Under the pieces are notes generated by a model that ran no database searches, was not told the DNA's origin, and worked only from the letters and a program-made list of their open reading frames with translations. 64,000 nucleotides of DNA from an uncultured Candidatus Saccharibacteria bacterium (GTDB lineage Bacteria; Patescibacteriota; Minisyncoccia; Phycocordibacterales; UBA12088), in assembly GCA_964562615.1 (NCBI GenBank), contig CAZLUD010000001.1, forward strand, positions 257,072-321,071. Direction: 5' to 3'. Shown one piece after another: positions 1,508 through 31,860 of the stretch (within the stretch, counting starts at the first letter, position 1; each line of letters begins with the position of its first letter). The position numbers were made by a program, and so were the translations under genes.

Positions 1508-2172
1508 TAGGTATTGATACCGATGTCATATGTATACGTCGTGGAGCCAGAATCTGATGATGGGTCGATGCTAAGACTGGTGATATCTACAATGCGCAAA
1601 CTTCTTTCAAGATCATTCATGAAAGAAATAAACTCTTCGTAAGTTGCCTCAACCGTAAATGTCATACCAACCGAGCGATACATTGGCGCTGGCCCACCAG
1701 GCGCTGCTGAGGTAACCATACCATCACTAAATCCTGCCCCACCTACACCTGATGCCTCTGGTGCAAAACCGGCAGGTGCACCAACTTGTTGCGTAGGTGC
1801 TGGGGTTCCTGCTTGGGTAGTAGCGCCAGTGGTGCCCTCTGACTCGCTGCTGTCTCCACTAAATCCAAAATCATCCAGTGTGAGTCCATGTTGCTTAGCA
1901 ATACTTTCGATATCAAGAATAAGGCGCACATTATCTATTTGGTCTGGAAGCATTTTTTGTAGACGCTCCAAATCAGTATCATTAAATGTGTTGTAGCGTG
2001 AGAGGAGACCGTCTCTTGCGGATTGTAGCTCTTTTGCCTTGGTAAGTGCTTGGTCATACCGATCATTCTCTGCGATGAGCGCTTGCACACTTTTGTAGGT
2101 AGGATCAACGTACGTAAAAAACAATCCACCAGCAACCAGTATGAAAAATATGGGCATGAATACTCCGGACAT
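1495..2172 (-). CDS. pilO: PilO-like type IV pilus inner-membrane assembly protein
   Basis: 225 aa, single N-terminal TM then coiled-coil (ENDRYDQALTKAKELQ) and low-complexity periplasmic tail; position after pilN. Confidence 0.55.
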   Translation of the reverse strand: MSGVFMPIFFILVAGGLFFTYVDPTYKSVQALIAENDRYDQALTKAKELQSARDGLLSRYNTFNDTDLERLQKMLPDQIDNVRLILDIESIAKQHGLTLDDFGFSGDSSESEGTTGATTQAGTPAPTQQVGAPAGFAPEASGVGGAGFSDGMVTSAAPGGPAPMYRSVGMTFTVEATYEEFISFMNDLERSLRIVDITSLSIDPSSDSGSTTYTYDIGINTYWLP

Positions 2173-2219
2173 ACTAGTGTTGAGATGCTATTAGGTTGTT
2201 GGTAAAGGTATACATGATA

Positions 2220-2975
2220 TTAAAATCCAAAATCATCAATATTAAGATCATCCACATTGACGTCATCTGTATTCAAAAGCGCGTCATCAGGATTAAATGT
2301 GGCATCGGCAGCAGATGCAGGCAATGATGACTCTACTCCTGCGAGGGCTTCAAATAGTGCTAGGTTCTTTATAAATGAAACTGTCTGTGGCTCAACAGAC
2401 GCTTTGAATGCAAAGGTAATAGTACCCTCATCTGAATCAAGATCACTTACGACCGGCTCAATAAGGAAATTATTTTCTCCGTATGCATCTGATTGGAGTG
2501 CCACCGCCTCAAAATCTGTAGCGACACCCGCCATGCTTATAGTAGGAAATCCGTTGTCATTAGAATAATCAAATGAGTCGTATCGCACAGACTCAAGTGT
2601 TACCTGCTCAAGAATCCCAAATATCGCTGATGGTGCGACATGTAGCTCGAGAATTTCTTTTGCTGCCTGAATGCGTGTATCAAGACGAGTAAGCTCTCTG
2701 ATGAGCGCGGGTTGAAACGCGTCGCGTGCTCGCTCGAGCGTGTCCTTTTTAGTTGCGATACTCTCGGTGAGATATCGCTCATAAAGAAACAATCCAGCGG
2801 ACAAACCTACCGCCGCAAGAAATACAATAAGACTGATGAAGGAACCAAGACCGAGCCCTACCCTCTTGCGAGGCGCACGCTGTGGTGCGACCGATGACTC
2901 GAGAGATTGCTTCGGTATAAATGATGTCTTAAATTTTGGCTCCACAGTATATGTAGTATACGCTAGGTAGTGCAA
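2220..2975 (-). CDS. pilN: PilN-like type IV pilus assembly protein
   Basis: 251 aa, short cytoplasmic N-term, TM (FISLIVFLAAVGLSAGLFLY), periplasmic domain; immediately downstream of pilM. Confidence 0.55.
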   Translation of the reverse strand: MHYLAYTTYTVEPKFKTSFIPKQSLESSVAPQRAPRKRVGLGLGSFISLIVFLAAVGLSAGLFLYERYLTESIATKKDTLERARDAFQPALIRELTRLDTRIQAAKEILELHVAPSAIFGILEQVTLESVRYDSFDYSNDNGFPTISMAGVATDFEAVALQSDAYGENNFLIEPVVSDLDSDEGTITFAFKASVEPQTVSFIKNLALFEALAGVESSLPASAADATFNPDDALLNTDDVNVDDLNIDDFGF

Positions 2976-3008
2976 TTAACTATACGCAACCTGTTGAAAA
3001 CTTACGCA

Positions 3009-4205
3009 CTACTCTTCTTCTTGAAGTTTGCGAAGTGCCAATCCCACTGCAACAGCAAAATCTGGACCAGCACCTTTTAACACTTCTTCAAGAAATGCAG
3101 GTGACTGCACCTTTTGAAATGGATCCGCAAGCACCACCTCCATATCAAAGCGCTCCGCAGCAAAACCCTTTAATCCCTGAATTGATGCCCCGGCACCAGT
3201 AAATACTATTTTGTTTACATTTTTGTTATAGCGCTTTTGGTAGCTAAGGATAGAGCGCTTCGCCTCCGAAAATATAAATTCCATGGTGAGTTGCGCAGTT
3301 TGTGACACGCTCTTTCCGTCTGCTCCTGTCCCTGCGCCGAGTAGCCCAAGTTCGCGCTTCATTTTTTCGGCTTTATCTATTGGTATCCCCAATGATCGCG
3401 AGAGCGATAGAGTGATGTCTTGTGATCCTTTACTTATGATATGTGACACACGGACAATACCGTACTCAACCACATAGAGTTTGGTTGAAGATGCGCCGAT
3501 ATCTATAACGACAAATGGCGCCGTTCCCCTATCCATCACCGCTCTGATAGAGCTGAAAATTTCTATTTCAAAAAATGCTGGTTTTAATCCTGATAGGGTG
3601 AGTACCTCGGCATACTTGCGAAGCATTTCATTATGAATGGCAACAAGCAACACAGTGGTTGTGCTTGTTGGAACCTTTGGTGCTTGCTGTTGAGGAGTGG
3701 CGGCAGCAGGTCCAGAAATCTGCTCTGCCTTTTGCTCTGGTGAATCTTTTGAAAAAAATCTTGCGTCATCATTAGGAATAACAAACCAATCAAGCTGCAC
3801 CTCGGTTATAGGAACGGGGATATATTTGCGTGCTTCTATTGGGATCATTTTTGCCAGCTGCGTTTGATCAAGCGCTGGCATTTCGATAAGCGTGATAAGA
3901 CTTGAGGCAAATGGAACAGACACCCCGCAATCCATAGTGGTAACATTTGCTTCTTGCATCAAATCTTTGAGCGCCTCAGATAATTTGTCTGCGGGCAAAT
4001 TAGTAGAGCGACCTGTCTCAAGTGAAGCATACGGACCAAGCGCTATTTCGCCATACGTTTCAAGTAGTGCTACCCCCTTCTCTTTTCGTAGCTGTACTAC
4101 TTTTATAGATGAATTTCCGATATCAACGCCAAGCACACTCTTTCCAGCTGAACTGAAAAGTCCTGACCCGAGCGAACCAATTAATTTGGAAAACATTCCC
4201 GCCAT
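3009..4205 (-). CDS. pilM: Type IV pilus assembly protein PilM (actin-like ATPase fold)
   Basis: 398 aa; VLGVDIGNSSIKVVQL start typical of PilM/FtsA-like; precedes pilN/pilO. Confidence 0.8.
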   Translation of the reverse strand: MAGMFSKLIGSLGSGLFSSAGKSVLGVDIGNSSIKVVQLRKEKGVALLETYGEIALGPYASLETGRSTNLPADKLSEALKDLMQEANVTTMDCGVSVPFASSLITLIEMPALDQTQLAKMIPIEARKYIPVPITEVQLDWFVIPNDDARFFSKDSPEQKAEQISGPAAATPQQQAPKVPTSTTTVLLVAIHNEMLRKYAEVLTLSGLKPAFFEIEIFSSIRAVMDRGTAPFVVIDIGASSTKLYVVEYGIVRVSHIISKGSQDITLSLSRSLGIPIDKAEKMKRELGLLGAGTGADGKSVSQTAQLTMEFIFSEAKRSILSYQKRYNKNVNKIVFTGAGASIQGLKGFAAERFDMEVVLADPFQKVQSPAFLEEVLKGAGPDFAVAVGLALRKLQEEE

Positions 4206-4268
4206 TGTCTTATATATGCCTTTTTAGTATAGCACCCTAACGCTATTATAAGAGTATCGATTGTTTAT

Positions 4269-4910
4269 ATGTATATTATAGAACGATTGCTTAGTATTCT
4301 ATTCCCCTACTCAGATGAGGTGGCAAACGTGACCACCATGCCGCTTGAAGTGCTCTTTAATAAGATCACCCCCCACGTAATCGAAGATAGCGCTTGTATT
4401 TCCCTTTATTCATATCATGATCCATTGGTACGTGCGCTGGTATATGCGGCAAAGTTTGAAGGCTCAAAAGAAGCAGCATACCGTATCGCCCTACTTATGA
4501 ATGAAGCACTGAAAGAAGTACTGTTTGAAAAACTACTCTTTGAGGGCATTGATACACCATTACTCATACCAGTCCCCCTTGGTAAAGTTCGTATGAAAAC
4601 ACGTGGCTTTAACCAAGCAGAACGTATTGCTCACCGCCTTGCCTTGTTGCTTCCCCAGCTTGGCACCGTGACTACCGGTGTGCTTATTCGTTCTCGTGAC
4701 ACAAAAAAGCAATCGCATATACGCAGTGACGGTGCGCGAGCAGAGAATGTTCGTAAAGCATTTTCAATACCACACCCAGAGCTATTATATGGTAAACATG
4801 TCATACTCATTGATGACGTGGTCTCAACCGGAAGCACTCTCTATGAATGCAGCAAGGTAATAGAGGGCGCTGGAGGTCGACCAGTAGTAGCTATAGCCTT
4901 TGCTCGGTAA
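4269..4910 (+). CDS. comFC: ComF family protein (ComFC-like phosphoribosyltransferase-domain competence protein)
   Basis: C-terminal PRTase motif HVILIDDVVSTGSTL, GFNQAE motif; divergent from pilM. Confidence 0.75.
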   Translation: MYIIERLLSILFPYSDEVANVTTMPLEVLFNKITPHVIEDSACISLYSYHDPLVRALVYAAKFEGSKEAAYRIALLMNEALKEVLFEKLLFEGIDTPLLIPVPLGKVRMKTRGFNQAERIAHRLALLLPQLGTVTTGVLIRSRDTKKQSHIRSDGARAENVRKAFSIPHPELLYGKHVILIDDVVSTGSTLYECSKVIEGAGGRPVVAIAFAR

Positions 4911-5313
4911 GCAAAAACTAACCATATCTATCCAAGACAAGTACATGCTACAGACATTACACACCACACTCTCAACCAAAACAAAAATGCTGGTAGGATT
5001 ACCACTTGTTGGACTTATCCTTATTGGATTATCTATCCATACCTATTATTCGTGGCACGATAAGCAATACTTTGGTGAGATAGTACAAGTTACTGATACC
5101 TCCATCACCATCTCGGATAAACGAATAGGAACAAGAACCCTAGAAATACATCAAGATACTGTCGTTAAAAAAGGGAGAATATCTGAAGTCGCCCTTATGG
5201 AGGGCATGAGCGTTATCATTACCACAAGCAGAACCAATAATCAGCACGCAAGTTTTATTCGCGTGGTGGAGCATCCGCCTCGAAAAAGTTCTCCCTTTGA
5301 TGTCCTTCGCTAA
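4900..5313 (+). CDS. Hypothetical membrane-anchored protein
   Basis: 137 aa ORF with TM segment LVGLPLVGLILIGL; no recognisable domain. Confidence 0.35.
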   Translation: MLGKQKLTISIQDKYMLQTLHTTLSTKTKMLVGLPLVGLILIGLSIHTYYSWHDKQYFGEIVQVTDTSITISDKRIGTRTLEIHQDTVVKKGRISEVALMEGMSVIITTSRTNNQHASFIRVVEHPPRKSSPFDVLR

Positions 5314-5896
5314 CCCCATGAAGCCTACACCTACGACACTTGCGACATACAAGCCGTTTCTATTTATCATCCCATTCGTGGGCTTTTCTATATTGTTTTA
5401 CACACTATCCCCAGAGACTATCATCGAATACATAGGGGTAGAAAACGCATATCTATTTATAGGCGTATTAGCATTTTTAGGAGGAGTTACTACCTTTAGC
5501 GGTATTCCCTACCATATTGTTCTTGTATCACTCGCGCTTGGTGGGCTTAATCCATTTATACTTGGAGGCGTCACTGCATTTGCCGTGATGGCAGGAGATG
5601 CCACCTCATATTATTTAGGAACGCAAACCCGATCACTGTTATCACAGAGGATGAATGAGTGGCTTGAAAAGCTTAGACTGTTGTATACAAACCACCCCCA
5701 CCTCCTTCCTGCAGTATTTTTTGGGTATGGATGTCTCATGCCTTTTTCAAATGATGTCATCACCATCCCCATGGGTATGCTTGGCTACCCCTTTTGGAAG
5801 GTAATCATCCCCCTTGGTCTTGGTAACCTTATTTTCAACACCACCCTCGCCCTACTTGCGGTATACGCCTACGACTATCTTGAGTATTTCTTTTAG
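5297..5896 (+). CDS. DedA / VTT-domain (SNARE-associated) family membrane protein
   Basis: 199 aa polytopic membrane protein, G-rich TM core (LAFLGGVTTFSGIPY...LGGLNPFILGG) typical of DedA/TVP38 family. Confidence 0.5.
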   Translation: MMSFANPMKPTPTTLATYKPFLFIIPFVGFSILFYTLSPETIIEYIGVENAYLFIGVLAFLGGVTTFSGIPYHIVLVSLALGGLNPFILGGVTAFAVMAGDATSYYLGTQTRSLLSQRMNEWLEKLRLLYTNHPHLLPAVFFGYGCLMPFSNDVITIPMGMLGYPFWKVIIPLGLGNLIFNTTLALLAVYAYDYLEYFF

Positions 5897-5906
5897 TAAC
5901 GCGTCA

Positions 5907-6197
5907 TCATACTTGCTGATAATTTCTAAACACTTCATTCTCTGGTAACCGCAAATCCTTGTAGACAAAACTGACACCATATGCCCTCAGCGCAGAAACG
6001 GGATCATCAACTCGCTCAACTCTCTTTGGGGTAAGTATATCTTTAGTAATCACCTCCAAATTACCTAGTCCATCTTTGTGAAAAAATGCATCTTTTTCAA
6101 AAGTATATAGATACCCTCCATCCCCATATAATGCAATGAGGCTTTCTTCCAATGAATCAAATCCGAAAATCTCCACTTCCTTCTTGTATTCATACAA
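5907..6197 (-). CDS. Hypothetical protein (downstream of CDPS, same strand)
   Basis: 96 aa ORF, AT-rich, co-oriented with CDPS; no recognised domain. Confidence 0.35.
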   Translation of the reverse strand: MYEYKKEVEIFGFDSLEESLIALYGDGGYLYTFEKDAFFHKDGLGNLEVITKDILTPKRVERVDDPVSALRAYGVSFVYKDLRLPENEVFRNYQQV

Positions 6198-6227
6198 ATC
6201 AACTCCCTTGTTGTAATGTGCTATCCT

Positions 6228-6437
6228 TCAATCAATTACGTATGGTTTAGGGGTACAGGTATACACAAGAGCTATCCATTTATGTGTGGTGGTGTGGAAA
6301 GAAACTTCATCAAAAATAGTGCATATCACCCCGTCATTGTCAGCGCTATTTCGAATATGTCGCTTGGGAATAGCACAATCAAACGAGTCACTTGATCCAT
6401 GGTATACGTATGCATCATCTAGCTCTGACTGATGCAT
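6228..6437 (-). CDS. Hypothetical small protein (downstream of CDPS)
   Basis: 69 aa ORF 6 nt downstream of CDPS stop; Cys-containing; no recognised domain. Confidence 0.3.
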   Translation of the reverse strand: MHQSELDDAYVYHGSSDSFDCAIPKRHIRNSADNDGVICTIFDEVSFHTTTHKWIALVYTCTPKPYVID

Positions 6438-6443
6438 ATGTAT

Positions 6444-7175
6444 TTAATAGTCCTTTATCAATTGCCCAGCAACTGGCTTTTGTAAATAATCTTCAACCAG
6501 AACACAAAGCTGCCGAAGTTGTAATGTTGAGGCGCTGAAATATTTACCACCTCTTATATCAAGAACAAATTGGCTCATTCCACTATCGACGTAGGTCGGA
6601 TACAAAATCAAATTATACAATGTGTTATTCCAAAATATTCCACCCAGTAACGTTGGGAGTTCACTTATTATGTACCCCGCAAGCTTATCCCTATCTTCAT
6701 TTGATACCGTTACATCTCTAAGTTCAATGTATTTGTTAACAAAATAGAGTACCCGCTCTCGAAATGCGGTATTCGATGTATATTCTTCAGCAAGAATTTC
6801 TCTCAAATGATCATAGCCGCTATTTTTTATGTCACTCCAGAATATTATATGCGTGTTTGCTATATAGGTGGGATCATTCTCTTTTCGTGCAAGATTACGA
6901 ATTGCTTTATCAAACATTCCTTTTATTCCATAACCCTTTTGCTGCACTTTCTCTTCAGCCTCCTCTTTGCTTAATCCCCTAAAGACCATCCAGTTAATGA
7001 CATCAATATCATCAGCGATAAGTATGAGAGCGTTATCCTTTGAATGGTGATGTGCCCATTGCACATACCGCTCCGCGAGCTCGGGTGTAAGGAGCTTATT
7101 TCCTAAACTGATACCCACAAAAATATTGAATAGTTTTTTGTTTATTTCCTCCTCCGTAACATGAAAATATTGCAT
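6444..7175 (-). CDS. tRNA-dependent cyclodipeptide synthase (CDPS, AlbC family)
   Basis: 243 aa; N-terminal IFVGISLGN matches the AlbC catalytic-Ser motif (ALIGISAGN); GYIISELP matches the AlbC Y178/E182 region (Y..AEAP); later YPTYVD matches the Y202 region; size and Rossmann-like layout fit CDPS. Confidence 0.7.
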   Translation of the reverse strand: MQYFHVTEEEINKKLFNIFVGISLGNKLLTPELAERYVQWAHHHSKDNALILIADDIDVINWMVFRGLSKEEAEEKVQQKGYGIKGMFDKAIRNLARKENDPTYIANTHIIFWSDIKNSGYDHLREILAEEYTSNTAFRERVLYFVNKYIELRDVTVSNEDRDKLAGYIISELPTLLGGIFWNNTLYNLILYPTYVDSGMSQFVLDIRGGKYFSASTLQLRQLCVLVEDYLQKPVAGQLIKDY

Positions 7176-7277
7176 ATTGTTATATTAAAACATATTTACG
7201 CGTATGAATATGTGTTCGGTTCTCTACCAAAACCTGCTAGCGCAGTAAAAATCAATCTATATACTGCATGGTATACC

Positions 7278-7883
7278 ATGACAGAATTTTGGGAATCTAG
7301 CTTTCAAAGCAAGCACATGATGTGGGGTGAAAGGCCTGCAGACTGCGTACATGAGGTAGTTGCTTTATTCAAGGAGCAAGGAGTGAAGAATGTTCTTATA
7401 CCCGGCTATGGCTACGGCAGAAACGCCAAGCCATTTATTGATAGCGGATTTGATGTAACAGGGATTGAAATATCACAAACAGCAATTGATTTAGCAAAAA
7501 AACACTCAAGTAATGACATCCTGATTCATCACGGCTCTGTCAGTGCGATGCCATTTGATGACGTGCAGTATGGTGGGATCTTTTGTTATGGGCTAATCCA
7601 TTTATTAGCTAAAGAAGAGAGGGCAAAACTCATCAAGGATTGCTACCGTCAATTACTGCCAGGTGGGTATATGGTATTTGTGGCACTTTCTAAAAATGAT
7701 GCTTCATATGGACAAGGAAAAGAGCTTAGCAGCAACACATTCCTTATGCCGTATGGGGTTACCCTTTTTTACTATGACGCTGATTCCATAAAAAATGAAT
7801 TTGAAGACCACACCATACTTGAGGCAAAAGAAATAAATGAGTCCTCAAGAAAATTTTGGCAGGTGACGTGTAAGAGAAATTGA
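7278..7883 (+). CDS. Class I SAM-dependent methyltransferase (candidate cyclodipeptide tailoring enzyme)
   Basis: Motif I VLIPGYGYGRNAKPFIDSGFDVTGIE, motif post-I/II (HHGSVSAMPFDD), LLPGGYMVF; start taken at internal ATG 7278 (MTEFWESS...); divergent from CDPS. Confidence 0.7.
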   Translation: MTEFWESSFQSKHMMWGERPADCVHEVVALFKEQGVKNVLIPGYGYGRNAKPFIDSGFDVTGIEISQTAIDLAKKHSSNDILIHHGSVSAMPFDDVQYGGIFCYGLIHLLAKEERAKLIKDCYRQLLPGGYMVFVALSKNDASYGQGKELSSNTFLMPYGVTLFYYDADSIKNEFEDHTILEAKEINESSRKFWQVTCKRN

Positions 7884-7911
7884 GAGTTATACCGTATGCA
7901 TATCATGGGTA

Positions 7912-8370
7912 ATGCATAACGACATGATAAAAAGAATTTCAATAGCATCTCTTCAAATAGCAGTTGTACTTATAGGCATAGTGGCATTCGCCATTATGAT
8001 CAGATTCCCTTTAACTGAAGGGCGGGCAATCAATTTGGATATATTTAGCATATACACTGATCCCCTCTTGATATATGAATACTTTGCATCAATGGCATTT
8101 TTTTATGCCTTGTATCAGACATACAAATTACTCGGATACATGCAACAGGATATGCTCTTTTCAAAACACTCTATTGATGCTCTCACAAAAATAAAATATA
8201 GCTCAATACTATTAAGTTTATTGATCATAGGAGCAGGCATATATGTACGGATATTTCACGCGCAAGACGATGATCCTGCAGGCTTCCTTGCGCTTTGTAT
8301 AGTAGCTATATTTGTGCTCAGCATCGTTGCTACTGTAGCGACAATGTTACAGAGAAGATTACGTCACTAG
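7912..8370 (+). CDS. Hypothetical 4-TM membrane protein (co-transcribed with methyltransferase)
   Basis: 152 aa with several hydrophobic helices; 29 nt downstream of MTase stop. Confidence 0.45.
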   Translation: MHNDMIKRISIASLQIAVVLIGIVAFAIMIRFPLTEGRAINLDIFSIYTDPLLIYEYFASMAFFYALYQTYKLLGYMQQDMLFSKHSIDALTKIKYSSILLSLLIIGAGIYVRIFHAQDDDPAGFLALCIVAIFVLSIVATVATMLQRRLRH

Positions 8371-8450
8371 GACGGCGCCTCGTATTGCTTACGCAATATA
8401 CTCCGGCGTACCAGTGTCGCCTTCGCAAAGTCTTGCTTCGGCGTACCGAG

Positions 8451-8475
8451 GGCGGAGAGTGAGGGATTCGACCCG
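8451..8475 (-). repeat. 25-nt direct repeat identical to the 3' end of tRNA-Ser (att-like)
   Basis: ggcggagagtgagggattcgaaccc at 8451-8475 is identical to 12597-12621 (3' T-arm plus acceptor of tRNA-Ser on the minus strand). No matching 5' acceptor, so it is a fragment and not a gene. Confidence 0.75.
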
Positions 8476-8854
8476 CTTTTGCTAAGCCCTGCAGGCTAAG
8501 CACGCTGGTCGCGCCTCGCCGACAATTTTACTTCGCGTTGCTGCGTAAAATCGTAGACCGGCTCCGGCGTTCGAATCCCTCACTTCTCACCCAAAACATA
8601 GTCGCCCAATGCTTCGCATCGTTCTCCTTGTTTTGCGGTGGCGATGTCCCGAAGTTTGAACCGAAAAAGTGGCTCAAATTCAAGGATATTGATAAAAGTA
8701 TACGTGAATTAAGGGCTATGTACAAGATTCATCCTGAATGGTTTGAAACGCCTCACCCAGAGTCCAATAGAGGTAAAAATGAGGTGGATTATTCGATCAT
8801 TGAGCAACCCTACATGGAAACGAAAACGAGGCGTTAGCCTCGTCCCCGCTTTTC

Positions 8855-9073
8855 TTAGCGATCCGTAATAAGATCGTTCAGAGATTTGATATTATGTTCC
8901 TCAAGGTAGGTCCCGAGTTGCATATCAGACCTAACACCAAGGTCAATGCCGTATTGTTTCTCGATTGTGCCAATATGAGTATCATCACGCTTATCGCGCA
9001 GGAGCCCATTTTGGTTTCGAGAACGGCACCCCTTCATGCCAGGTGCGTCGTTCTTGCAATTTGAATTTGCCAT
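8855..9073 (-). CDS. Hypothetical small protein in island
   Basis: 72 aa ORF, no recognised domain. Confidence 0.25.
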   Translation of the reverse strand: MANSNCKNDAPGMKGCRSRNQNGLLRDKRDDTHIGTIEKQYGIDLGVRSDMQLGTYLEEHNIKSLNDLITDR

Positions 9074-9255
9074 AGTACGTCTCGAAATTAAGTTAATAAT
9101 GTCGAGAAAGGTTCGACTACCTCCTTCCTCGCGTCTGACGCGATATGAAGATAGTCATTTTGGCTTTTACAAGAACAGGACGGACTTTAACGTCTCGTTT
9201 TCAGTAATATTATAAATTATTTTAACTAATTCCGCAACCTCCTTTTCCTGCTATT

Positions 9256-9903
9256 TCATAACTCAATAACCTTATACCCTCCAGTAGACACAATAATATG
9301 ATTAATAAGAATAATCCCCAGAAGATCTCCTGCATCAGCTACTCGCTTTGTAATTGTGGCGTCTTCGTCTGAAGGTTCAAGGCTACCTGATGGGTGATTG
9401 TGGGCCAAGACAACCCCTGCCGCTGATAGTTGCAGAGCGGGCTCGAAGACCTCCCTTGGATGTAAAAGTGAAGTATCGAGCGTACCGACAGAAATAATAC
9501 GTCTTTCAATTAATTTTTGTTGTGTGTCAAGGTAAAACGCCACTATATGCTCTTTTTTTGATGAACGAAAATCTGCGCATAAATTCCATATATCCTTCAC
9601 TGATAGCAATTCAATACTGCTCTCACTCCTAAAACGATCAGCAAGAGAAATGACGGCAAGTATTTGAATTGCTTTTGCTTTTCCTAATCCGCGAATCTTT
9701 CGCAAATCTTCCAGTGTTACGTTATTTGCTGATTTTTGAGTTATGAATTTTTCTATTTTTCGAGCAAGCTCAAGTACGTTGCAACCTTTGATTCCTGAAC
9801 CAAGGATGATTGCTATCAATTCAAAATTTCTTAGACGTTTTGCGCCATACTTCTCCATTTTCTCTCGAGGAAGTTCTGTCTTCTTTAGTTCAGCAAGTTT
9901 CAT
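9256..9903 (-). CDS. radC: RadC-like JAB/MPN-domain protein (UPF0758)
   Basis: C-terminal JAMM motif VLAHNHPSGSLEPSDED; helix-hairpin-helix-like N-terminal part. Confidence 0.75.
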   Translation of the reverse strand: MKLAELKKTELPREKMEKYGAKRLRNFELIAIILGSGIKGCNVLELARKIEKFITQKSANNVTLEDLRKIRGLGKAKAIQILAVISLADRFRSESSIELLSVKDIWNLCADFRSSKKEHIVAFYLDTQQKLIERRIISVGTLDTSLLHPREVFEPALQLSAAGVVLAHNHPSGSLEPSDEDATITKRVADAGDLLGIILINHIIVSTGGYKVIEL

Positions 9904-9935
9904 GGCGTAGTTTTAGTATATAATAATCATAGTCG

Positions 9936-10439
9936 TTACATAAGCGAGTCGGCAATCTTCTTGACGCACGTGGATTGATCTTTTTTGAGTTGATGTTCCC
10001 AGAGACGCAACACAACCCAACCTTCAGTATGGAGTTTTTGAGTCACTCTTCTATCGCGTATTCTGTTGCGTTCAATTTTCTCTCGCCAGAAATCATTTTT
10101 GAGTAAATGCTTCCAACGTGGATATTGCCAGCCATGCCAAAAGTTACTGTCGAAGAACACGCAGACTCTATGTTTTTTAAAAACAATATCGGGTTTACCC
10201 AAAACACTCACATCGTTAATAGTAAAAATTTTGCGAGTTTGTTTTTTTAATACAGCAATCAAATTTTGCTCAAACTTGGTTGATTTTGAGCGTATAAGCG
10301 ACATTCGTCGTGATCGTTCTTTAACAGTTAGCTTGTCCGGACTCCTTTTTTTAGAAAAATCACGATTAAGACTATTATGAGTTTGTTTCTTCATAACCAG
10401 ACTGAAAAACTTCTGAGGGAAGTTCATTGCCAAGGCCAC
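9936..10439 (-). CDS. vsr: Very-short-patch repair endonuclease (Vsr)
   Basis: FDSNFWHGW...W..K...N..RD..V...L...GW.VLRLWEH motif set characteristic of Vsr; overlaps the 3' end of the upstream endonuclease gene by 65 nt. Confidence 0.75.
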   Translation of the reverse strand: MALAMNFPQKFFSLVMKKQTHNSLNRDFSKKRSPDKLTVKERSRRMSLIRSKSTKFEQNLIAVLKKQTRKIFTINDVSVLGKPDIVFKKHRVCVFFDSNFWHGWQYPRWKHLLKNDFWREKIERNRIRDRRVTQKLHTEGWVVLRLWEHQLKKDQSTCVKKIADSLM

Positions 10440-11418
10440 CGACGGCGTCCTTATCTATAAGATCTTTCCACTGCCTAATTCTATCTGCTTCAACAGACTG
10501 GACTTGCCAATAAAATTTCAACAATTCTTCATCTATTTCATTGATTCTACTGGCGATTCTTGACGCATAATCATGAAGTTGGGAAAGTATCTGTGATACA
10601 CTTTTTTTCTCCCGCGCGACCAAAACTTCTTGCTGACCACCTGCGCTAAAAGCATCACGCAAGCTTGTGGAGACCGCTCCAAATTCGGTGATCATGTACG
10701 TGGCCGCTCGTTCATAATTAGCACGATTTTTAAAGAGTTCGGGTAGAAGGATCATACAATCGATCTTAAATCTTTCTTTATTCTCCGGTTCCAAGGTTCG
10801 AAATTGTTTAATAACTGGGGAAGATGATTCTGATTCTTCATCAATCCACCACAAACCTTCGCCGTCTTTGAGTTGTTTTCTGTAATATGATTTTATTTGC
10901 TGTATAGTGTCTCCACTTGTTCGCAGCTCATCATAAGAAACACCCATTTTATCAAATATGGATTTTCCTTTTGGTAAGTCCATATTGATTCTATATCTTG
11001 GTGAATGAGTAACGCTTATCTCCGGCAAACACTCTTGGTATAACCGATAACGGACGTCGGGTTCTCCACCCAATTTCCCGAACATGATAAAAATTCGCTC
11101 AACATCTTCCATTCGTGAAGTTTCTAAGACGCTATTACCAGTTGAAGTCCAATGATCTTTAGAGGTTATCTTTACTTCAACTCCAAAATATCCGTTAGCG
11201 ACGATATCAGGAAAAGCATATACCCCTGTCCGCTTAATCGTTCCTTCAAATTCTGTGCCTATGGAAACCTCTTGCATCTTGTCGCAAACGAGACCTTCAA
11301 AATCAAGAGCTGAAATACTCTTATCTCCCCTCAAATGCGCCACTAAAAGTTTTTTCGACTTTTCCAAAAGCTCAACAAACCTTTCTTCGTGGGCGTTTTT
11401 CTTTTCTGAATAAATCAT
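10375..11418 (-). CDS. Putative Type II restriction endonuclease (PD-(D/E)xK fold)
   Basis: 347 aa between the C5-MTase and Vsr; candidate PD..E.K motif in AFPDIVANGYFGVEVK; start 2 nt after MTase stop. Confidence 0.5.
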   Translation of the reverse strand: MIYSEKKNAHEERFVELLEKSKKLLVAHLRGDKSISALDFEGLVCDKMQEVSIGTEFEGTIKRTGVYAFPDIVANGYFGVEVKITSKDHWTSTGNSVLETSRMEDVERIFIMFGKLGGEPDVRYRLYQECLPEISVTHSPRYRINMDLPKGKSIFDKMGVSYDELRTSGDTIQQIKSYYRKQLKDGEGLWWIDEESESSSPVIKQFRTLEPENKERFKIDCMILLPELFKNRANYERAATYMITEFGAVSTSLRDAFSAGGQQEVLVAREKKSVSQILSQLHDYASRIASRINEIDEELLKFYWQVQSVEADRIRQWKDLIDKDAVGGLGNELPSEVFQSGYEETNS

Positions 11419-11419
11419 A

Positions 11420-12406
11420 TTATTTCAAGTTCTTGTCGAGAAACGACCGAATCGACTTCGCAATATGCCATGCTAAAACTGGGGGTACGGCATTACCGAT
11501 CTGTTTATAAGCCTGGGACGTTGATGGTAAAAATTCCATGTCGTCAGGAAACGATTGAATCCTTGCGGCTTCACGAGCCGAAAGTCGTCGCTTACCATTC
11601 CAATGGTATTCAATATTGCCATGATGCTCTGTTCTCATTGTTGGTCCTGGTTTATCGGAATCTATTATTCCGTTTCCCTGTCCTTTATTTTTCTTTGCTT
11701 TAGACCAATAGTGGTTTGATAAGCCGCCTTCTTTGACATTTTCCAAATCACCAAACGCCTCTTTTACTGATACGTGTTTGCCTTTGTGAGTTGGCCTTGG
11801 ATAATCATCGTCCTTAAATAAAGGCAAAACATCTTTACGGGTTCCAACAATAACTACTCGCTCACGCATTTGTGGCACGCCATAATCAGCAGCAAGAAGT
11901 AGTTTATGATTTACATGGTATCCCAATTTTGCAAAATCATTTTTGATAATACCTATGGCTGTTCCGTTGTCTATCGTAAGAAGACCCCTAACGTTCTCAG
12001 CAACAAACATCATCGGTTTCGTCCGACGGATAACCTCGGCCATACTACGATAAAGGAGACCTTTTTCGCTATTAAATCCTCTTCGCTTCCCAGCATGACT
12101 AAACTCCTGACACGGAAAACCACCGAGTACGATATCAACTTTTTTTGGTAGTGGCGTATCAAGCTTAGAATTATGTTTACCACTCAAAATATCAACAATG
12201 CTTCCGCAAACAATATCATGTTTGAAATAATTTTTAAAAGTTTTACATGCTGGTTCGTCTATGTCGTTGGCCCAATCTATAATAAACGGATGTTTCTGGT
12301 ATTTTTTTCCATTTGATTCAAAACCACCGACAAAACCGAGATCTAGACCACCACATCCAGTAAAAAGCGACGCAACCGTAAATTTATTTTTAGTATTGTT
12401 GGTCAT
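11420..12406 (-). CDS. dcm: DNA (cytosine-5)-methyltransferase (Dcm-type)
   Basis: Motif I LFTGCGGLDLGF, motif IV GGFPCQEFS, motif VI ENVRGL, QMRERVVIVG, C-terminal GNAVPP. Confidence 0.85.
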   Translation of the reverse strand: MTNNTKNKFTVASLFTGCGGLDLGFVGGFESNGKKYQKHPFIIDWANDIDEPACKTFKNYFKHDIVCGSIVDILSGKHNSKLDTPLPKKVDIVLGGFPCQEFSHAGKRRGFNSEKGLLYRSMAEVIRRTKPMMFVAENVRGLLTIDNGTAIGIIKNDFAKLGYHVNHKLLLAADYGVPQMRERVVIVGTRKDVLPLFKDDDYPRPTHKGKHVSVKEAFGDLENVKEGGLSNHYWSKAKKNKGQGNGIIDSDKPGPTMRTEHHGNIEYHWNGKRRLSAREAARIQSFPDDMEFLPSTSQAYKQIGNAVPPVLAWHIAKSIRSFLDKNLK

Positions 12407-12520
12407 AAAATTATTTTAGATTGCAATCAATATAGTTATGGTTGTTTAGAATTATTTCTAGTTCACCGTACAACTGTATTTTACCAGAAATTCATTAATT
12501 TGATGAGTGTATTTAGAAAA

Positions 12521-12550
12521 ACCGGCATCTTATTCTAATGCCGGCTTTTC
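12521..12550 (-). terminator. Hairpin plus T-run downstream of tRNA-Ser
   Basis: accggcat-cttattcta-atgccgg followed by T-run on the minus strand. Confidence 0.4.
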
Positions 12551-12595
12551 AATCGTATAAATCCCTTATTTTGCTTGGGTTCAAACTTGGTAATC

Positions 12596-12685
12596 TGGCG
12601 GAGAGTGAGGGATTCGAACCCTCGAGGGGTTTTACCCCCTACCTCGTTAGCAGTGAGGCGCTTTCGGCCACTCAGCCAACTCTCC
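12596..12685 (-). tRNA. tRNA-Ser (anticodon GCU), CCA encoded
   Basis: Minus-strand read GGAGAGTTGGCTGAGTGGCCGAAAGCGCCTCACTGCTAACGAGG...long variable arm...GAGGGTTCGAATCCCTCACTCTCCGCCA; 7-bp acceptor, anticodon loop CTGCTAA. Confidence 0.85.
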
Positions 12686-12753
12686 AATTTGTGGAGATAC
12701 CATACCATGAATAGGTACCACATTGAAAGCACGACGATAGTGAGGCGCTTGTG

Positions 12754-13137
12754 TTATGAAGCGAGACCTAAAAGCTCCTCAGCCTTGTGGACTATTTCTT
12801 CAAGAAAAACCGATGACTTTACCAAATACTCATTAGCTCCTGCCTTGAGTGCTTCCTCCTTCTCTGCATCCTGCGCGTTGTTAGAAACAATAACCACCGG
12901 CACTTCTTTATGAATACCAGCGCGTATCTCTTTGAGTAGCTCTATGCCATTTTCTCCCGGTAGTCCTATATCAAGACATACTAGATCAACCCGCTCTGCT
13001 TCTAGGTACTTTTTTGCATCGATGGCATTTGCCGCATGAAGCACCTTGAATACCGTACTCAGCTTTCTTCCTAAAATATCAGAAATAAAAATATCATCCT
13101 CTACCACCAATACCGTTCGTTTAATTGTTTCAGTCAT
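12754..13137 (-). CDS. Stand-alone response regulator receiver (CheY-like) domain protein
   Basis: VLVVEDD...DLVCLDIGLPGENG...K receiver motifs; 127 aa. Confidence 0.7.
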   Translation of the reverse strand: MTETIKRTVLVVEDDIFISDILGRKLSTVFKVLHAANAIDAKKYLEAERVDLVCLDIGLPGENGIELLKEIRAGIHKEVPVVIVSNNAQDAEKEEALKAGANEYLVKSSVFLEEIVHKAEELLGLAS

Positions 13138-13271
13138 TTGAGTACTTCTATTATTTTATAAGTGAGTCATTCTGTCTAGTGTGTATTGCAGGCGCTGCCA
13201 TACTTGTATGGGTGGCTCTTTCTTCTTGCATCAGCTACAATGACAGGCGCATTAGACATTGAAATAACATC

Positions 13272-13706
13272 ATGAAATCATTACTTGTCATACCAATCAT
13301 TTCTGCACTCGCCATTGTTGGTTACTTGTATAGCAAAAAAGAAACAAACGACCCGATTACACAAGAAGGGTCAATGAATACTCTCACACAAAGTGATATG
13401 ACTGCCACGAGCCTCCTTTCTACCCCATCAGTACAAACATTTAATGTAACGGGAAAGGACTACGAATTTTCTTTGAAAGAGATGCGGGTTAAAAAGGGTG
13501 ATACCGTGCGAATAAACTTTGAAAGTGTTGATGGTACCCACAATTGGACACTTGATGAATTTGAGGTTGCTACCGAGCAGGTAGCGCCGGGCACGCTAAC
13601 ATCAGTAGAATTTATTGCGGATACTGTTGGCGCATTTGAATACTATTCTTCAATAGAGAGCGACGAGGCAAATGGCATGGTGGGGCAACTGTTTGTAGAG
13701 GAATAG
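13272..13706 (+). CDS. Secreted/membrane-anchored cupredoxin-like domain protein (metal site apparently degenerate)
   Basis: N-terminal TM/signal; GTHNW and C-terminal ...YYSSIESDEANGMVG resemble a blue-copper fold, but Cys is replaced by Ser. Confidence 0.3.
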   Translation: MKSLLVIPIISALAIVGYLYSKKETNDPITQEGSMNTLTQSDMTATSLLSTPSVQTFNVTGKDYEFSLKEMRVKKGDTVRINFESVDGTHNWTLDEFEVATEQVAPGTLTSVEFIADTVGAFEYYSSIESDEANGMVGQLFVEE

Positions 13707-15995: not shown

Positions 15996-16505
15996 ATGAA
16001 AAAGCTGTACTCTTTTCTCATCTCTGCAGTGATTCTAATAGGAGTACTTGGACTAAATTGGAAAACAACAATAATAGAAGGGGTTGCGTACGAGATATTT
16101 TCTCAAAGTAATTCTCTTCGTGAAAATTTTGACCAATTCATACGATGTACTCAGGAGATAAGAGCAAGCAATACTGGATGCTCGAGAAATTTTCAAAGAA
16201 TATTTACTGGGAGAGATTCCGCAATTGCTGAATCTTGGCCGGATATATTTGACGCACTTGAAGCAAAGCCTCACTGGGCATGGGTCAAGAGGAATGATTT
16301 CCGCGCATTTCATGATGCAATACAGTCATATGGGCGAAACAAATTGAGAAATGAATGTGTACCTATAATTACCTATATGTACACTGAGGGACGAACTACG
16401 TTCAATTTCGATCACCGCTACCGGTGTAGCGGTGATCCTAGGCCACCTTCGGGTGGCCTTTCCTTTTTACTCCCAACCACAAACTGTGCGCCCGCTTGGA
16501 CTTGA
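15996..16505 (+). CDS. Hypothetical secreted/membrane-anchored protein
   Basis: Start at MKKLYSFLISAVILIGVLG (signal/TM); the 3' end runs through a hairpin and overlaps the tRNA on the opposite strand, so the C-terminus is uncertain. Confidence 0.4.
   Translation: MKKLYSFLISAVILIGVLGLNWKTTIIEGVAYEIFSQSNSLRENFDQFIRCTQEIRASNTGCSRNFQRIFTGRDSAIAESWPDIFDALEAKPHWAWVKRNDFRAFHDAIQSYGRNKLRNECVPIITYMYTEGRTTFNFDHRYRCSGDPRPPSGGLSFLLPTTNCAPAWT
16441..16470 (+). terminator. Rho-independent terminator-like hairpin
   Basis: ggccacc-ttcg-ggtggcc followed by tttccttttt. Confidence 0.5.
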
Positions 16506-16560
16506 ACCAAGGACCCCAAAGGTATAAGCTTTGTGCTCTAACCAACTGAGCTACGGGCGC
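16487..16560 (-). tRNA. tRNA-Ile with anticodon UAU (no encoded CCA)
   Basis: Minus-strand read GCGCCCG-TA-GCTC-AGTTGGTTA-GAGC-A-CAAAG-CTTATAC-CTTTG-GGGTC-CTTGG-TTCAAGT-CCAAG-CGGGCGC-A; clean cloverleaf; anticodon loop CTTATAC gives UAU. Confidence 0.75.
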
Positions 16561-21885: not shown

Positions 21886-22096
21886 TGCATAGTAACACAC
21901 GCAAAAGCCACTCAAAAGAGTGGCATCTACGTATCGCCAAACATATGTTGCCTTGGAAAAACAAGGTGGGCGATCGCAAACAAGAAGCAAACTTCTTGAA
22001 GATATAGACCAGCCCTAGGATATAACCAAGAAGGACAATATGTCTGGCGACAAGGCTAGTATACCATGATGCATACTAGGTCAATCTTCTAAAAAA

Positions 22097-22702
22097 CTAT
22101 TCAAGGATACCGTCAAGATTTACGTCGTACAGTATCTTTTCCCACACTGTTTTGTAATTCATGATGTCATTCTCTGAGAACCATACCTGAATTTCTCGCT
22201 CTGCCTCCTCTGGACTCTCAGAGCAGTGAATGAGATTTCGTACCGCCGAGCTTCGGTAGGTAGCGTGCGAGTAAGAGTCAACCGTAAGATCTCCTCGTAT
22301 GGTGCCTATATCTGCTGTTTTTGGCTCAGTAGTACCAACATGCTTAACCACTACACCTACTGCTTGATTTCCTTCTACTACTGCTGCAAGCACAGGGCCC
22401 GCAGTCATAAACTTCACATTACCCTCCATGATGTCTCTTCCGTACTCAATTGCTGGTTTATCAACCACCACACCACGGGCGGTAAGTTGCTCAACTACCC
22501 CCTGCCCTTTGCGCTCACACCATGCGTCATCTTTATTGTAGTGCGCTAATACCTGTTCGCGAGTAGGAACAAAAAACTTAAATGCGGTAAATTTTAGTCC
22601 AGTTCGCTCAATACGTGAGAGTACCTCTCCGACTAGTCCGCGCTGGATAGTGTCAGGCTTAAGAATAATAAGTGTTCGCTCTTTTTCAAATTGTCTATTC
22701 AT
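22097..22702 (-). CDS. ndk: Nucleoside diphosphate kinase
   Basis: ERTLIILKPD...RGLVGEV...NVKFMTAGP...; C-terminal extension. Confidence 0.85.
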   Translation of the reverse strand: MNRQFEKERTLIILKPDTIQRGLVGEVLSRIERTGLKFTAFKFFVPTREQVLAHYNKDDAWCERKGQGVVEQLTARGVVVDKPAIEYGRDIMEGNVKFMTAGPVLAAVVEGNQAVGVVVKHVGTTEPKTADIGTIRGDLTVDSYSHATYRSSAVRNLIHCSESPEEAEREIQVWFSENDIMNYKTVWEKILYDVNLDGILE

Positions 22703-22763
22703 GTATGTACTTACTAATTAATTGACCGCACTATAGCTAAAATTCTTATATATGTACAGACAG

Positions 22764-23534
22764 CTAGGCGGTTACCACCACTGGCTTGCCGTTTGTAATG
22801 ACTATGGTGTGTTCAAATTGCGCGCTTCGTGAACCATCTTTTGTACGAACCGTATACCCATCTCTATCGACAACAAAACGATTTTTACCCTCAATGACGA
22901 TAGGTTCAATGGCGAGCACCATATTTGGGACAAGACGAGCTCCCTTGCCAAATCCTGTGACATTTGGCACGTGCGGGTCTTCGTGGACTTTATACCCTAC
23001 CCCATGCCCTCCGTACTCCTCTGCCAAAGAAAACCCAGTGCCAATAACTGATTCTTCAATCGCATTACTGATATCACTTACATAATTATTTGGCAGCGCG
23101 GCCGCTATTGCCCTCTCGAGTGCTCGCTTGGTTACGGCAATAAGCGATGCGGCCCGCTCATCAATGTGACCTACCCCCACCGTTATGGTTGCGTCCACCA
23201 CTAAACCTTTTCGTACCAATCCCATATCCAACGAGACAATATCCCCCTCCTTAAGTATTTGTGGATTCTCATTTGGGATGCCGTGTACCACCACGTTGTT
23301 TATCGAGATACAGGCACTTGCAGGAAACGGCCTTGGAGCCCCTTGTGGTTTATAGTGTAAAAAGGCTGGTATATCTCCCTCTTTGCGAATAAGTGATTCC
23401 GCAAGATCATTTAACTCGTTAGTACTTACCCCAGCAACTGCAGCCTTGCCCACTTCATTGATTACTATCGCGAGGCGTTTGCCCGCGCTTTTGAGTATCT
23501 CTATCTCCTCAGGCTTTTTAAGAGAAATTGCCAT
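22764..23534 (-). CDS. map: Methionine aminopeptidase type I
   Basis: MAISLKKPEEIE..., metal ligands D..D..H..E..E pattern (VVDATI, HGIP). Confidence 0.9.
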   Translation of the reverse strand: MAISLKKPEEIEILKSAGKRLAIVINEVGKAAVAGVSTNELNDLAESLIRKEGDIPAFLHYKPQGAPRPFPASACISINNVVVHGIPNENPQILKEGDIVSLDMGLVRKGLVVDATITVGVGHIDERAASLIAVTKRALERAIAAALPNNYVSDISNAIEESVIGTGFSLAEEYGGHGVGYKVHEDPHVPNVTGFGKGARLVPNMVLAIEPIVIEGKNRFVVDRDGYTVRTKDGSRSAQFEHTIVITNGKPVVVTA

Positions 23535-24129
23535 TTGCGAATTTTATCTTTGAGATTATTTCTTGATGAACCTCTTCCACAGAATTATTACCATGTATCT
23601 TTATAAGACGGTAATCATCGCGCCAATCATAGTAATCAATAATGGGGAGCACTCTTCCTCTGTACCATGCCAAACGCTCTTTGATACCCTCAGGGGAGTC
23701 ATCGTGGCGTCCTCGAGCGAGTAATCGCTCAAATGCAGTCTCATCATCTATATCAAGAAAGATAACAATGGCAGGTAGCCTATTATAAAACTTAAGGGCG
23801 GTGTGGAGTATTTGCGCTTCAAACAACGAACGAGGAAACCCATCAATAAGAATATGTTCAGAGCCACCAAAATTATGGATGAAGCCTTGCGACCAGAGAG
23901 ACACAGAAAGAAACTCTGGCTGAAGCTTTCCCTCTTCCATACTTTCCTTTACTAGCTTCGCGGTATAACTATCTCCCTCCATCATCTCTCTGAAACCAGC
24001 GCCCGTTTCAAATCGAAATACCGCCCCATCGGTGCTTTTTTCTTTGAGATACGCTTCTAGTAAATTGGCCTGTGTCCCCTTACCTGCGCCCTGCATTCCT
24101 ATGAATATTATTGTTTGAGCAACCATATG
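23518..24129 (-). CDS. adk: Adenylate kinase (short form)
   Basis: Start at MVAQTIIFIGMQGAGKGTQ (P-loop); follows secY as in the canonical operon. Confidence 0.8.
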   Translation of the reverse strand, partial: HMVAQTIIFIGMQGAGKGTQANLLEAYLKEKSTDGAVFRFETGAGFREMMEGDSYTAKLVKESMEEGKLQPEFLSVSLWSQGFIHNFGGSEHILIDGFPRSLFEAQILHTALKFYNRLPAIVIFLDIDDETAFERLLARGRHDDSPEGIKERLAWYRGRVLPIIDYYDWRDDYRLIKIHGNNSVEEVHQEIISKIKFANGNFS

Positions 24130-24189
24130 CCTACAATAGCAAAAAAGACGGCTTAATGAAACAGCAAAAATATGGTTTGATACTATAGT

Positions 24190-24756
24190 ATGAAGAAACA
24201 CATAATCACCATCGCCGGTAAGCCAGGAAGCGGAAAATCAACCACTGCTAATTTACTCGCTCAAACGCTAGGCTACGAACGATATTCTTCAGGTGATTTT
24301 ATGCGTACTATTGCGATGAATCACCACATGACCCTTGCCGAGCTTGGTGAGTATGCAAAAACCCATCCAGAAATAGATCTTGAGATTGATGCAGAAAATG
24401 TAAAAGCAGGTACAAAGGACAATATAGTTATCGACGCGCGTCTTGCCTTTCACTTTATTCCAGAGTCCTACAAAGTGTACCTTGATCTTGATTTAGTCCA
24501 ATCTGCGAGTCGTATTTATCACAACCAAACAGAAGCACGTGTACAAAGCGGCGAATCACCAAGCAGTGAAAAGGAGCTTGAAACTATGCTTCGTGAACGA
24601 CTAGAAAGTGAGCGTGAACGATATACCACACTCTATGGCATAAATCACCTCGACCTATCTAACTATGACTTGGTTATAAATACCGAAAAACTATCCACTG
24701 AGGAGATAGTTGATCAGATTATTCACGGCTACAACTCCTTTATAGAAAAAGAGTAG
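24190..24756 (+). CDS. Cytidylate-kinase-like P-loop nucleotide kinase
   Basis: IITIAGKPGSGKST P-loop; about 188 aa; archaeal-type Cmk-like. Confidence 0.5.
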   Translation: MKKHIITIAGKPGSGKSTTANLLAQTLGYERYSSGDFMRTIAMNHHMTLAELGEYAKTHPEIDLEIDAENVKAGTKDNIVIDARLAFHFIPESYKVYLDLDLVQSASRIYHNQTEARVQSGESPSSEKELETMLRERLESERERYTTLYGINHLDLSNYDLVINTEKLSTEEIVDQIIHGYNSFIEKE

Positions 24757-24760
24757 GTTC

Positions 24761-26044: not shown

Positions 26045-26046
26045 TC

Positions 26047-26499: not shown

Positions 26500-26501
26500 A
26501 C

Positions 26502-27095: not shown

Positions 27096-27107
27096 ACGGA
27101 TGTGTAA

Positions 27108-27455: not shown

Positions 27456-27458
27456 ATA

Positions 27459-27992: not shown

Positions 27993-27999
27993 ATTTGTA

Positions 28000-28395: not shown

Positions 28396-28396
28396 A

Positions 28397-29266: not shown

Positions 29267-29271
29267 ATAAT

Positions 29272-29502: not shown

Positions 29503-29503
29503 A

Positions 29504-29872: not shown

Positions 29873-29879
29873 AAATGTA

Positions 29880-30134: not shown

Positions 30135-30136
30135 AA

Positions 30137-30328: not shown

Positions 30329-30338
30329 ACTACACAAA

Positions 30339-30758: not shown

Positions 30759-30768
30759 ACAAATGAAT

Positions 30769-31452: not shown

Positions 31453-31459
31453 ATAGTGA

Positions 31460-31855: not shown

Positions 31856-31860
31856 AGGAA

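Follow-up and report, generated by a model that had tools for sequence, protein, structure and literature searches.

A strain-variable cassette of a Patescibacteria genome carries a probable stand-alone XYP-type cyclodipeptide synthase

Introduction

Cyclodipeptide synthases (CDPSs) are one-gene routes leading from charged tRNAs to bioactive diketopiperazines, and only one such enzyme from the Candidate Phyla Radiation (CPR) has been characterised. Here, we analysed a CDPS gene (6444-7175, minus strand) and its surroundings in a 64,000-nt stretch of DNA from an uncultured Candidatus Saccharibacteria bacterium (assembly GCA_964562615.1, contig CAZLUD010000001.1, positions 257,072 to 321,071), which is called the window throughout the text. 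The prototype of the family, AlbC from Streptomyces noursei, shares the albonoursin cluster with the tailoring oxidase AlbA/AlbB. Furthermore, two-gene pathways consisting of a CDPS and an N-methyltransferase exist in Actinobacteria, where they yield methylated cyclo(Trp-Trp) in Actinosynnema mirum and nocazines in Nocardiopsis.

The characterised CPR enzyme, CDPS 90, was described in 2018 and makes cyclo(His-Pro) (cHP) and cyclo(His-Glu) (cHE) (PMC5816076). This protein from the Parcubacteria bacterium RAAC4_OD1_1, now named ParcuCDPS, was crystallised and engineered in 2022 (PMC7613923; PDB 7QB8 and mutants). Among the papers listed in our literature search, none beyond the ParcuCDPS work dealt with CDPSs in Patescibacteria or DPANN. 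The initial annotation of the window had regarded a tRNA-hijacking secondary-metabolite pathway in an apparently reduced, episymbiotic genome as noteworthy, which was overstated, since ParcuCDPS has been known since 2018. What is new here is a separate and unusually conserved clade with a different signature in the first substrate pocket (P1), without a tailoring partner and placed on a strain-variable cassette. Judged from sequence comparisons and structure prediction, the window probably harbours an intact stand-alone CDPS of the XYP subfamily on a 1.3-kb strain-variable Patescibacteria/CPR cassette, with a product that is likely unmodified and does not contain His as predicted from the pocket.

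The CDPS and its predicted active site

The open reading frame (ORF) 6444-7175 encodes a protein of 243 amino acids (aa), whose membership of the CDPS family is close to certain. It scores 42.7 bits on the Pfam profile PF16715 (gathering cut-off 27) and 61.8 bits on the NCBIfam profile TIGR04539, 'tRNA-dependent cyclodipeptide synthase' (cut-off 45), and its translation contains the motifs G21-I-S23-L-G-N26, Y168-I-I-S-E172-L-P174 and L-Y192-P193-T-Y. The top sequence matches among solved structures are seven entries of ParcuCDPS (E ~1e-18, residues 9-213). An AlphaFold2 model based on an alignment with 58 homologues reached a mean predicted local distance difference test score (pLDDT) of 91.6 and a predicted template modelling score (pTM) of 0.88. 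When this model was searched against the PDB with Foldseek, the best 50 matches were CDPSs without exception (50/50), headed by wild-type ParcuCDPS 7QB8 with template modelling (TM) scores of 0.75/0.82. Model and matches thus show the Rossmann-like fold that is related to class Ic aminoacyl-tRNA synthetases. Hence, the initial annotation was right to recognise an AlbC-family CDPS from its Ser, Tyr/Glu and later Tyr motifs. Two of the checks that it had proposed agree: the profile search placed the protein above two curated cut-offs, neither among aminoacyl-tRNA synthetase fragments nor outside any family, and structure modelling recovered the CDPS fold, with the residues intact.

ParcuCDPS is the closest described system. 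It shares with the window enzyme the family, the XYP subfamily and the CPR source, represents the best match in sequence and structure, and has the Ser/Asp pair, the Tyr, the Glu and the Tyr-Pro catalytic residues in common with it. However, the two proteins are only 25-30% identical, and the window enzyme has its place in another clade, which is tightly conserved. AlbC has the same fold and the same Ser/Tyr/Glu/Tyr arrangement (Foldseek match to 3OQV, E 4e-7), but it is 14% identical, belongs to the NYH subfamily instead of XYP, and differs from the window CDPS by its tailoring genes, since no conserved tailoring neighbour accompanies the latter.

The catalytic residues were mapped through a HMMER alignment of the window CDPS with ParcuCDPS, and the roles of the residues were taken from PMC7613923. 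The acyl-enzyme nucleophile S26 of ParcuCDPS corresponds to S23 in the window, the Asp that forms a hydrogen bond with this Ser (D58) to D55, the catalytic Tyr Y167 to Y168, the catalytic Glu E171 to E172, and the XYP signature Y191-P192 to Y192-P193. The importance of the Asp is evident from the D58A/N variants of ParcuCDPS, which keep less than 1% activity (PMC7613923). All six window positions (S23, D55, Y168, E172, Y192 and P193) are invariant or near-invariant among 58 homologues, and via the ParcuCDPS alignment the equivalents of AlbC S37, Tyr178, Glu182 and Tyr202 are all present. According to the definition of the subfamily (PMC7613923), XYP enzymes carry X40/Y202/P203 in AlbC numbering; the window CDPS has N26/Y192/P193 at these positions, and the Tyr-Pro pair was found in 33/33 loci with CDPS relatives.

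A clear difference concerns the P1 pocket, whose positions were assigned by anchoring to ParcuCDPS. The His-selecting triad Y55/E174/Y189 of ParcuCDPS is replaced by L52/T175/I190 in the window CDPS, which places the enzyme outside the His-incorporating specificity group of ParcuCDPS and makes a different first substrate expected. Throughout a clade of 67-81% identity (69-81% by tblastn), these three positions read L/T/(I or V), whereas farther CPR/DPANN relatives show other combinations, with Y/E/Y in none of the examined loci. In ParcuCDPS, mutation of the triad abolishes cHP formation, and aliphatic replacements lead to the use of Leu or Phe as substrate (PMC7613923). Because the His triad is replaced here and aliphatic triads switch ParcuCDPS to Leu/Phe, the first substrate of the window CDPS is probably a non-polar amino acid and not His.

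If the ping-pong mechanism known for CDPSs is assumed by homology, the aminoacyl moiety of the first aminoacyl-tRNA would be transferred to Ser23, polarised by Asp55 as in ParcuCDPS. A second aminoacyl-tRNA would then give rise to a dipeptidyl-enzyme, whose cyclisation to the 2,5-diketopiperazine would be aided by Tyr168, Glu172 and Tyr192. The cyclodipeptide would most likely be released unmodified.

A strain-variable cassette with the CDPS gene and a broken companion

The CDPS gene is part of a 1,319-bp cassette (5900-7218, delimited by blastn), which comprises the CDPS gene, a split 172-aa gene and 43 nt upstream of the CDPS. Its boundaries emerged from a comparison with a related strain (contigs L045/L046), which was reached through P0121, a 96% identical homologue of the S-adenosylmethionine (SAM)-dependent methyltransferase (MTase) next to the CDPS. 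Positions 1-3916 of L045 correspond to window 1984-5899 with 98.9% DNA identity and positions 3921-5154 to window 7219-8454 with 96.0% (blastn), while in the junction alignment window 5900-7218 is absent from L045/L046, with 'AAAA' in its stead. The gene order in this strain is PilM, PRT, a 122-aa ORF, VTT, MTase and DUF2975, and the genes are co-directional from PRT on. Hence, the divergent layout of CDPS and MTase is that of a minus-strand cassette inside a co-directional plus-strand array, which accounts for the 'divergent pairing' seen in the window. The initial annotation had treated 5907-8370 as one block; it falls into a strain-specific indel (5900-7218) and resident DNA (7219-8454). 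In five independent assemblies (contigs L001-L005, ~100% identical) the window CDPS is 100% identical.

No recombinase gene was found in the cassette, and its two ends have only the hexamer ACGCGT in common, to which we give no weight. The cassette also lacks both flanking tRNA 3'-end repeats and an integrase, so that it does not represent an integrative tRNA-gene island. The tRNA-Ser repeats of this region bound 8475-12596 instead. A search with Rfam over 5000-13500 revealed no regulatory RNA, a tRNA being the sole match.

The second gene of the cassette begins 6 nt past the CDPS stop codon (5907-6437, minus strand). Two small unknown ORFs had initially been listed at this place; they are the halves of a single gene of about 172 aa from an uncharacterised family. 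Both halves, 'orf69' (6228-6437) and 'orf96' (5907-6197), are in the same frame with one TGA (6228-6230) between them. In an exhaustive phmmer search orf96 matches residues ~80-175 of proteins of ~170 aa, and the fused reading of orf69 and orf96 aligns with ~172-aa homologues over 94-98% of the query at up to 69% identity. The TGA is aligned with a conserved Gly, which is encoded by GGA in the closest homologue (L049) and by GGT in two others, and the same TGA codon occurs in both near-identical contigs examined, L001 and L003. An alternative genetic code (code 25, UGA = Gly) is unlikely, because TGA terminates 7/54 long ORFs of the window as well as the split gene itself, at the position where its homologues end, and because the closest homologue uses GGA. 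Since TGA ends other ORFs of the window and GGA is found in the closest homologue, the simplest reading would be a G-to-T nonsense mutation that gave a pseudogene or split gene, and the companion gene is probably a pseudogene.

The 172-aa family has 81 matches with the motifs YHGS, SFHAT, GGYLY and LEVIT, and one member (P0264) is fused to a PDZ-peptidase S41 protein. Pfam gave no assignment, with matches to DUF6886 only below threshold, and PADLOC gave no match. The pattern HGS...GGY...E might recall ADP-ribosyltransferases. Members in L049, L050 and L051 have no adjoining CDPS and variable neighbours. The 172-aa gene is a passenger and not a partner of the CDPS.

The neighbouring methyltransferase and DUF2975 genes

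Two resident genes follow on the plus strand. The first (7278-7883) encodes a class I SAM-dependent MTase of 201 aa resembling TPMT/TehB, with Pfam matches to Methyltransf_11 (57 bits), Methyltransf_25 and TPMT (35 bits). Its start lies 102 nt from that of the CDPS, in line with the divergent class I MTase already noted from the sequence. Neither an equivalog-level NCBIfam assignment nor a close characterised structure was found for it. The second (7912-8370) encodes a 152-aa DUF2975 membrane protein (PF11188, 60.2 bits) with four hydrophobic segments when its translation is read by eye, which bears out the initial call of a protein with four transmembrane segments. The MTase family is large (5,567 homologues), and its organism-named members of 56-62% identity are mostly Bacteroidota, among them Pontibacter, Cyclobacterium, Adhaeribacter, Bacteroides and Rhodohalobacter, which is in line with a generic methyltransferase for small molecules. 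An identity of 56-62% is high for a comparison across phyla and suggests horizontal acquisition of the MTase gene.

The initial annotation combined these genes with the CDPS to a cluster of synthase, tailoring MTase and membrane protein for immunity. This is not supported, as the MTase-DUF2975 pair occurs without the CDPS in a near-identical strain and the association is not kept elsewhere. In L045/L046 (96-99% identical DNA) the pair directly follows the VTT gene. In L047/L048 an MTase of 65% identity directly follows PRT, and both CDPS and DUF2975 are absent from the 12.6 kb that were read. Conversely, no relative of the MTase, of DUF2975 or of the small ORFs lies within ~6 kb of other CDPS loci of the clade, and at 14 further places in genomes where a CDPS of 69-83% identity occurs, there was no MTase, no DUF2975 and no common neighbour. 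When the neighbours were searched by tblastn, run against 38 and then 44 loci, MTase, DUF2975, small ORFs, VTT, PRT and PilM were found beside a CDPS only in L001-L005 among the 33 CDPS loci. All-versus-all clustering of 503 neighbour ORFs gave no between-genome family, apart from the sisters L007/L014 and one repeat-derived ORF family (L006, L009). The contexts in L039-L044 and L053 (CDPS 78-83% identical) differ from one another as well. Conserved synteny around the CDPS was therefore rejected, for both approaches show no shared neighbour outside the same population, and a tailoring gene conserved among relatives, as expected in a CDPS-dependent gene cluster, is lacking.

The MTase and DUF2975 genes are resident, and their contact with the cassette is coincidental. 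An unmodified product is therefore most likely, and we consider with good confidence that the window CDPS works as a solo enzyme without a link to the MTase. The adjacency of a CDPS and a class I SAM-dependent MTase resembles the two-gene pathways of Actinobacteria, but in the window it is restricted to one population, was made by the cassette indel and is kept in no relative, and the MTase comes from a widespread generic family.

Distribution and conservation of the CDPS clade

We collected 135 homologues of the window CDPS, most of them 60-83% identical; the clade is patchily distributed. A pattern scan of 185,579 species genomes yielded, within its limits, 33 loci where relatives of the CDPS are encoded. 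Toward ten orthologues, the non-synonymous divergence (dN) is 0.11-0.27 and the synonymous divergence (dS) is saturated. Because dS is saturated, recent horizontal transfer was rejected as the reason for the high identity in the sampled genomes, and the high CDPS identity would instead reflect strong purifying selection, possibly combined with older transfers. The DNA similarity to other CDPS loci (66-76%) is confined to the ORF and ends at its boundaries, which speaks against a mobile unit larger than the CDPS gene. Searches of IMG/VR and PLSDB for phage or plasmid carriage found no CDPS relatives.

The degree of conservation becomes evident from a comparison with other genes of the same contigs. 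Between L039 and the window, which share the macro-synteny FtsH - RecG - ... - CDPS - ... - PRT - PilM, the CDPS is 83% identical versus 67% for FtsH, 58% for RecG, 40% for PilM and 33% for PRT. Relative to L007/L014, the CDPS values are 75% / 71%, compared with 46-74% for ribosomal proteins and 70% for SecY. A yardstick for such comparisons is the main ribosomal-protein operon of the window (22000-33500, minus strand), which includes SecY, Adk and Map.

The genomic contexts are diverse, and several of them look recombinogenic. In the sister metagenome-assembled genomes (MAGs) L007 (6001-6714) and L014 (6013-6468), the CDPS gene is situated inside a ribosomal-protein operon, with the L5 gene on one side and the S14 gene on the other, and both copies show decay: the one in L014 is truncated to 151 aa, and the one in L007 carries D55N, the counterpart of the inactivating mutation in ParcuCDPS. 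In three different genomes, a co-directional tRNA-His(GTG) gene immediately precedes the CDPS: L010 (2060-2133), L011 (5667-5739) and L013 (1694-1765), and the 3' end of tRNA-His occurs in additional copies in L011 and L013. A functional link to tRNA-His was rejected, as the His-binding triad is absent and the recurring pieces of the tRNA 3' end indicate integration sites. The CDPS of L013 lies, together with a 270-aa gene, between direct repeats of 232 nt (1761-1992 and 4041-4272). In L009, inverted repeats of 302 nt (160-461 and 2726-3027, 98% complementary) surround the CDPS and a 301-aa gene; this arrangement could represent an element that is invertible or composite, or else an error of the assembly. 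Resolvase fragments and a helix-turn-helix (HTH) gene are found near the CDPS in L042/L044.

Relatives of 30-40% identity with the same Ser/Asp/Tyr/Glu/Tyr-Pro residues are frequent in MAGs of Woesearchaeota, Pacearchaeota and Nanoarchaeota, which suggests a CDPS superclade common to ultra-small bacteria and archaea. The DPANN loci are L016-L024, L026, L028, L030, L031, L034 and L037.

The adjacent tRNA-Ser island and base composition

Downstream of DUF2975, the window contains a genomic island of ~4.1 kb (8475-12596) with a 72-aa ORF, RadC and a type II restriction-modification system of Vsr, a restriction enzyme (REase_II) and a C5 DNA methyltransferase (Pfam RadC; PADLOC), in which no integrase was found. 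Its integration target is tRNA-Ser with the anticodon GCT (12596-12685, minus strand; ARAGORN, Rfam tRNA 55.4 bits). Repeat and pattern searches revealed a 24-nt direct repeat of the tRNA-Ser(GCT) 3' end on the plus strand as an att-like boundary (8451-8474), 80 nt past the DUF2975 stop codon, and the repeat search an inverted fragment of the tRNA-Ser 3' end (8568-8585); altogether, the 3'-end pattern gave 3 matches versus 0.02 expected. At the same hotspot, the cargo of L045 is a different one with regard to defence, namely a 395-aa SduA_C (Shedu-like) protein plus a 336-aa ORF. The initial annotation had placed the whole block beside this island. The island edge indeed lies at 8451-8474, and the tRNA is 4.2 kb from the block, but the cassette is separate, being located 1.2 kb outside the island with the resident MTase and DUF2975 genes in between. 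Likewise, the block had been called strongly AT-rich. The GC content is lower in the cassette (0.379), the MTase gene (0.406) and the DUF2975 gene (0.368) than in the window (0.44), but the difference is modest (0.368-0.406), and composition defines no single unit because the resident MTase and DUF2975 genes are low in GC as well. The tRNA-Ile of the window (16486-16560) has the anticodon TAT (UAU) and not the usual bacterial CAU/lysidine solution for AUA.

Alternative explanations

Several points weigh against an intact solo CDPS with an unmodified, non-His product. For XYP enzymes, substrates are predicted less dependably from the pocket, as conceded by the developers of the predictive model (PMC5816076), and the adjacent MTase may methylate the product opportunistically. 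The cassette is dispensable between near-identical strains and includes a disrupted companion gene, so that loss of the CDPS could be under way. Moreover, no sigma-70-like promoter was detected in the 102 nt upstream of the CDPS by a consensus scan, which gave 3 promoter-like sites overall versus 9.5 expected, and CPR promoters may differ from the consensus. Such findings are what one would see if the cassette were a decaying remnant and its CDPS had ceased to be expressed or of use in this strain, and the premature TGA in the co-carried 172-aa gene, present also in L001 and L003, the absence of the cassette from sister strains and the eroding copies in L014 (151 aa) and L007 (D55N) point in the same direction. 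Nevertheless, decay is quite unlikely for the window copy, whose ORF is full-length with every catalytic residue kept and fully identical in all five assemblies, within a clade under strong purifying selection.

It is highly unlikely that CDPS, divergent MTase and DUF2975 form a cluster whose product is a methylated cyclodipeptide and whose membrane protein serves in export or immunity. In favour of it, the genes lie side by side in divergent orientation, 102 nt apart, all three are below average in GC, and pathways of CDPS and MTase exist in Actinobacteria. Putative MTases near another enzyme, CDPS 75, have also been mentioned (PMC5816076). However, the MTase-DUF2975 pair continues the co-directional array without a CDPS in the 96-99% identical strain, a PRT-MTase arrangement without CDPS is found in L047/L048, no MTase or DUF2975 relative was seen within ~6 kb of any other clade CDPS, and relatives of the MTase number in the thousands, the organism-named ones being mostly Bacteroidota. 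A function outside secondary metabolism is very improbable, be it an aminoacyl-tRNA-dependent housekeeping or translation role or a factor of CPR/DPANN symbiosis. It would explain the slower evolution of the CDPS in comparison with FtsH and ribosomal proteins (83% versus 67% for FtsH, 58% for RecG and 40% for PilM in L039; 75% versus 46-74% for ribosomal proteins in L007), and the location within a ribosomal-protein operon in L007/L014, the position directly downstream of tRNA-His in L010, L011 and L013, and the many 30-40% identical relatives in Woesearchaeota, Pacearchaeota and Nanoarchaeota would be compatible with it. Yet the gene is dispensable between near-identical strains and rare (33 loci in 185,579 species genomes, as far as the pattern scan could detect them), pieces of the tRNA 3' end recur at the tRNA-His positions in the manner typical of integration sites, and the retention of all canonical catalytic residues agrees with the ordinary CDPS reaction. 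A stand-alone CDPS making an unmodified cyclodipeptide is hence the interpretation that we prefer.

Implications

The window CDPS represents a CPR clade that differs from that of ParcuCDPS, is much more conserved and has another predicted pocket, which makes it a reasonable target for product discovery. It would be wrong to assign the MTase and the membrane protein to a pathway, and an automated 'CDPS cluster' call would over-annotate this locus. A wider view, which we regard as speculative and rather doubtful, is that a distinct, strongly constrained clade of solo XYP CDPSs, which ultra-small symbionts carry as an accessory gene, with close members in Patescibacteria and farther ones in DPANN archaea, makes an untailored, non-His cyclodipeptide that would act on the host or the community. 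If true, this would provide reduced organisms with a one-gene chemical signal or weapon that is fed directly by charged tRNAs. The presence and absence of the cassette at strain level offers a natural comparison for the use of such a compound to an episymbiont.

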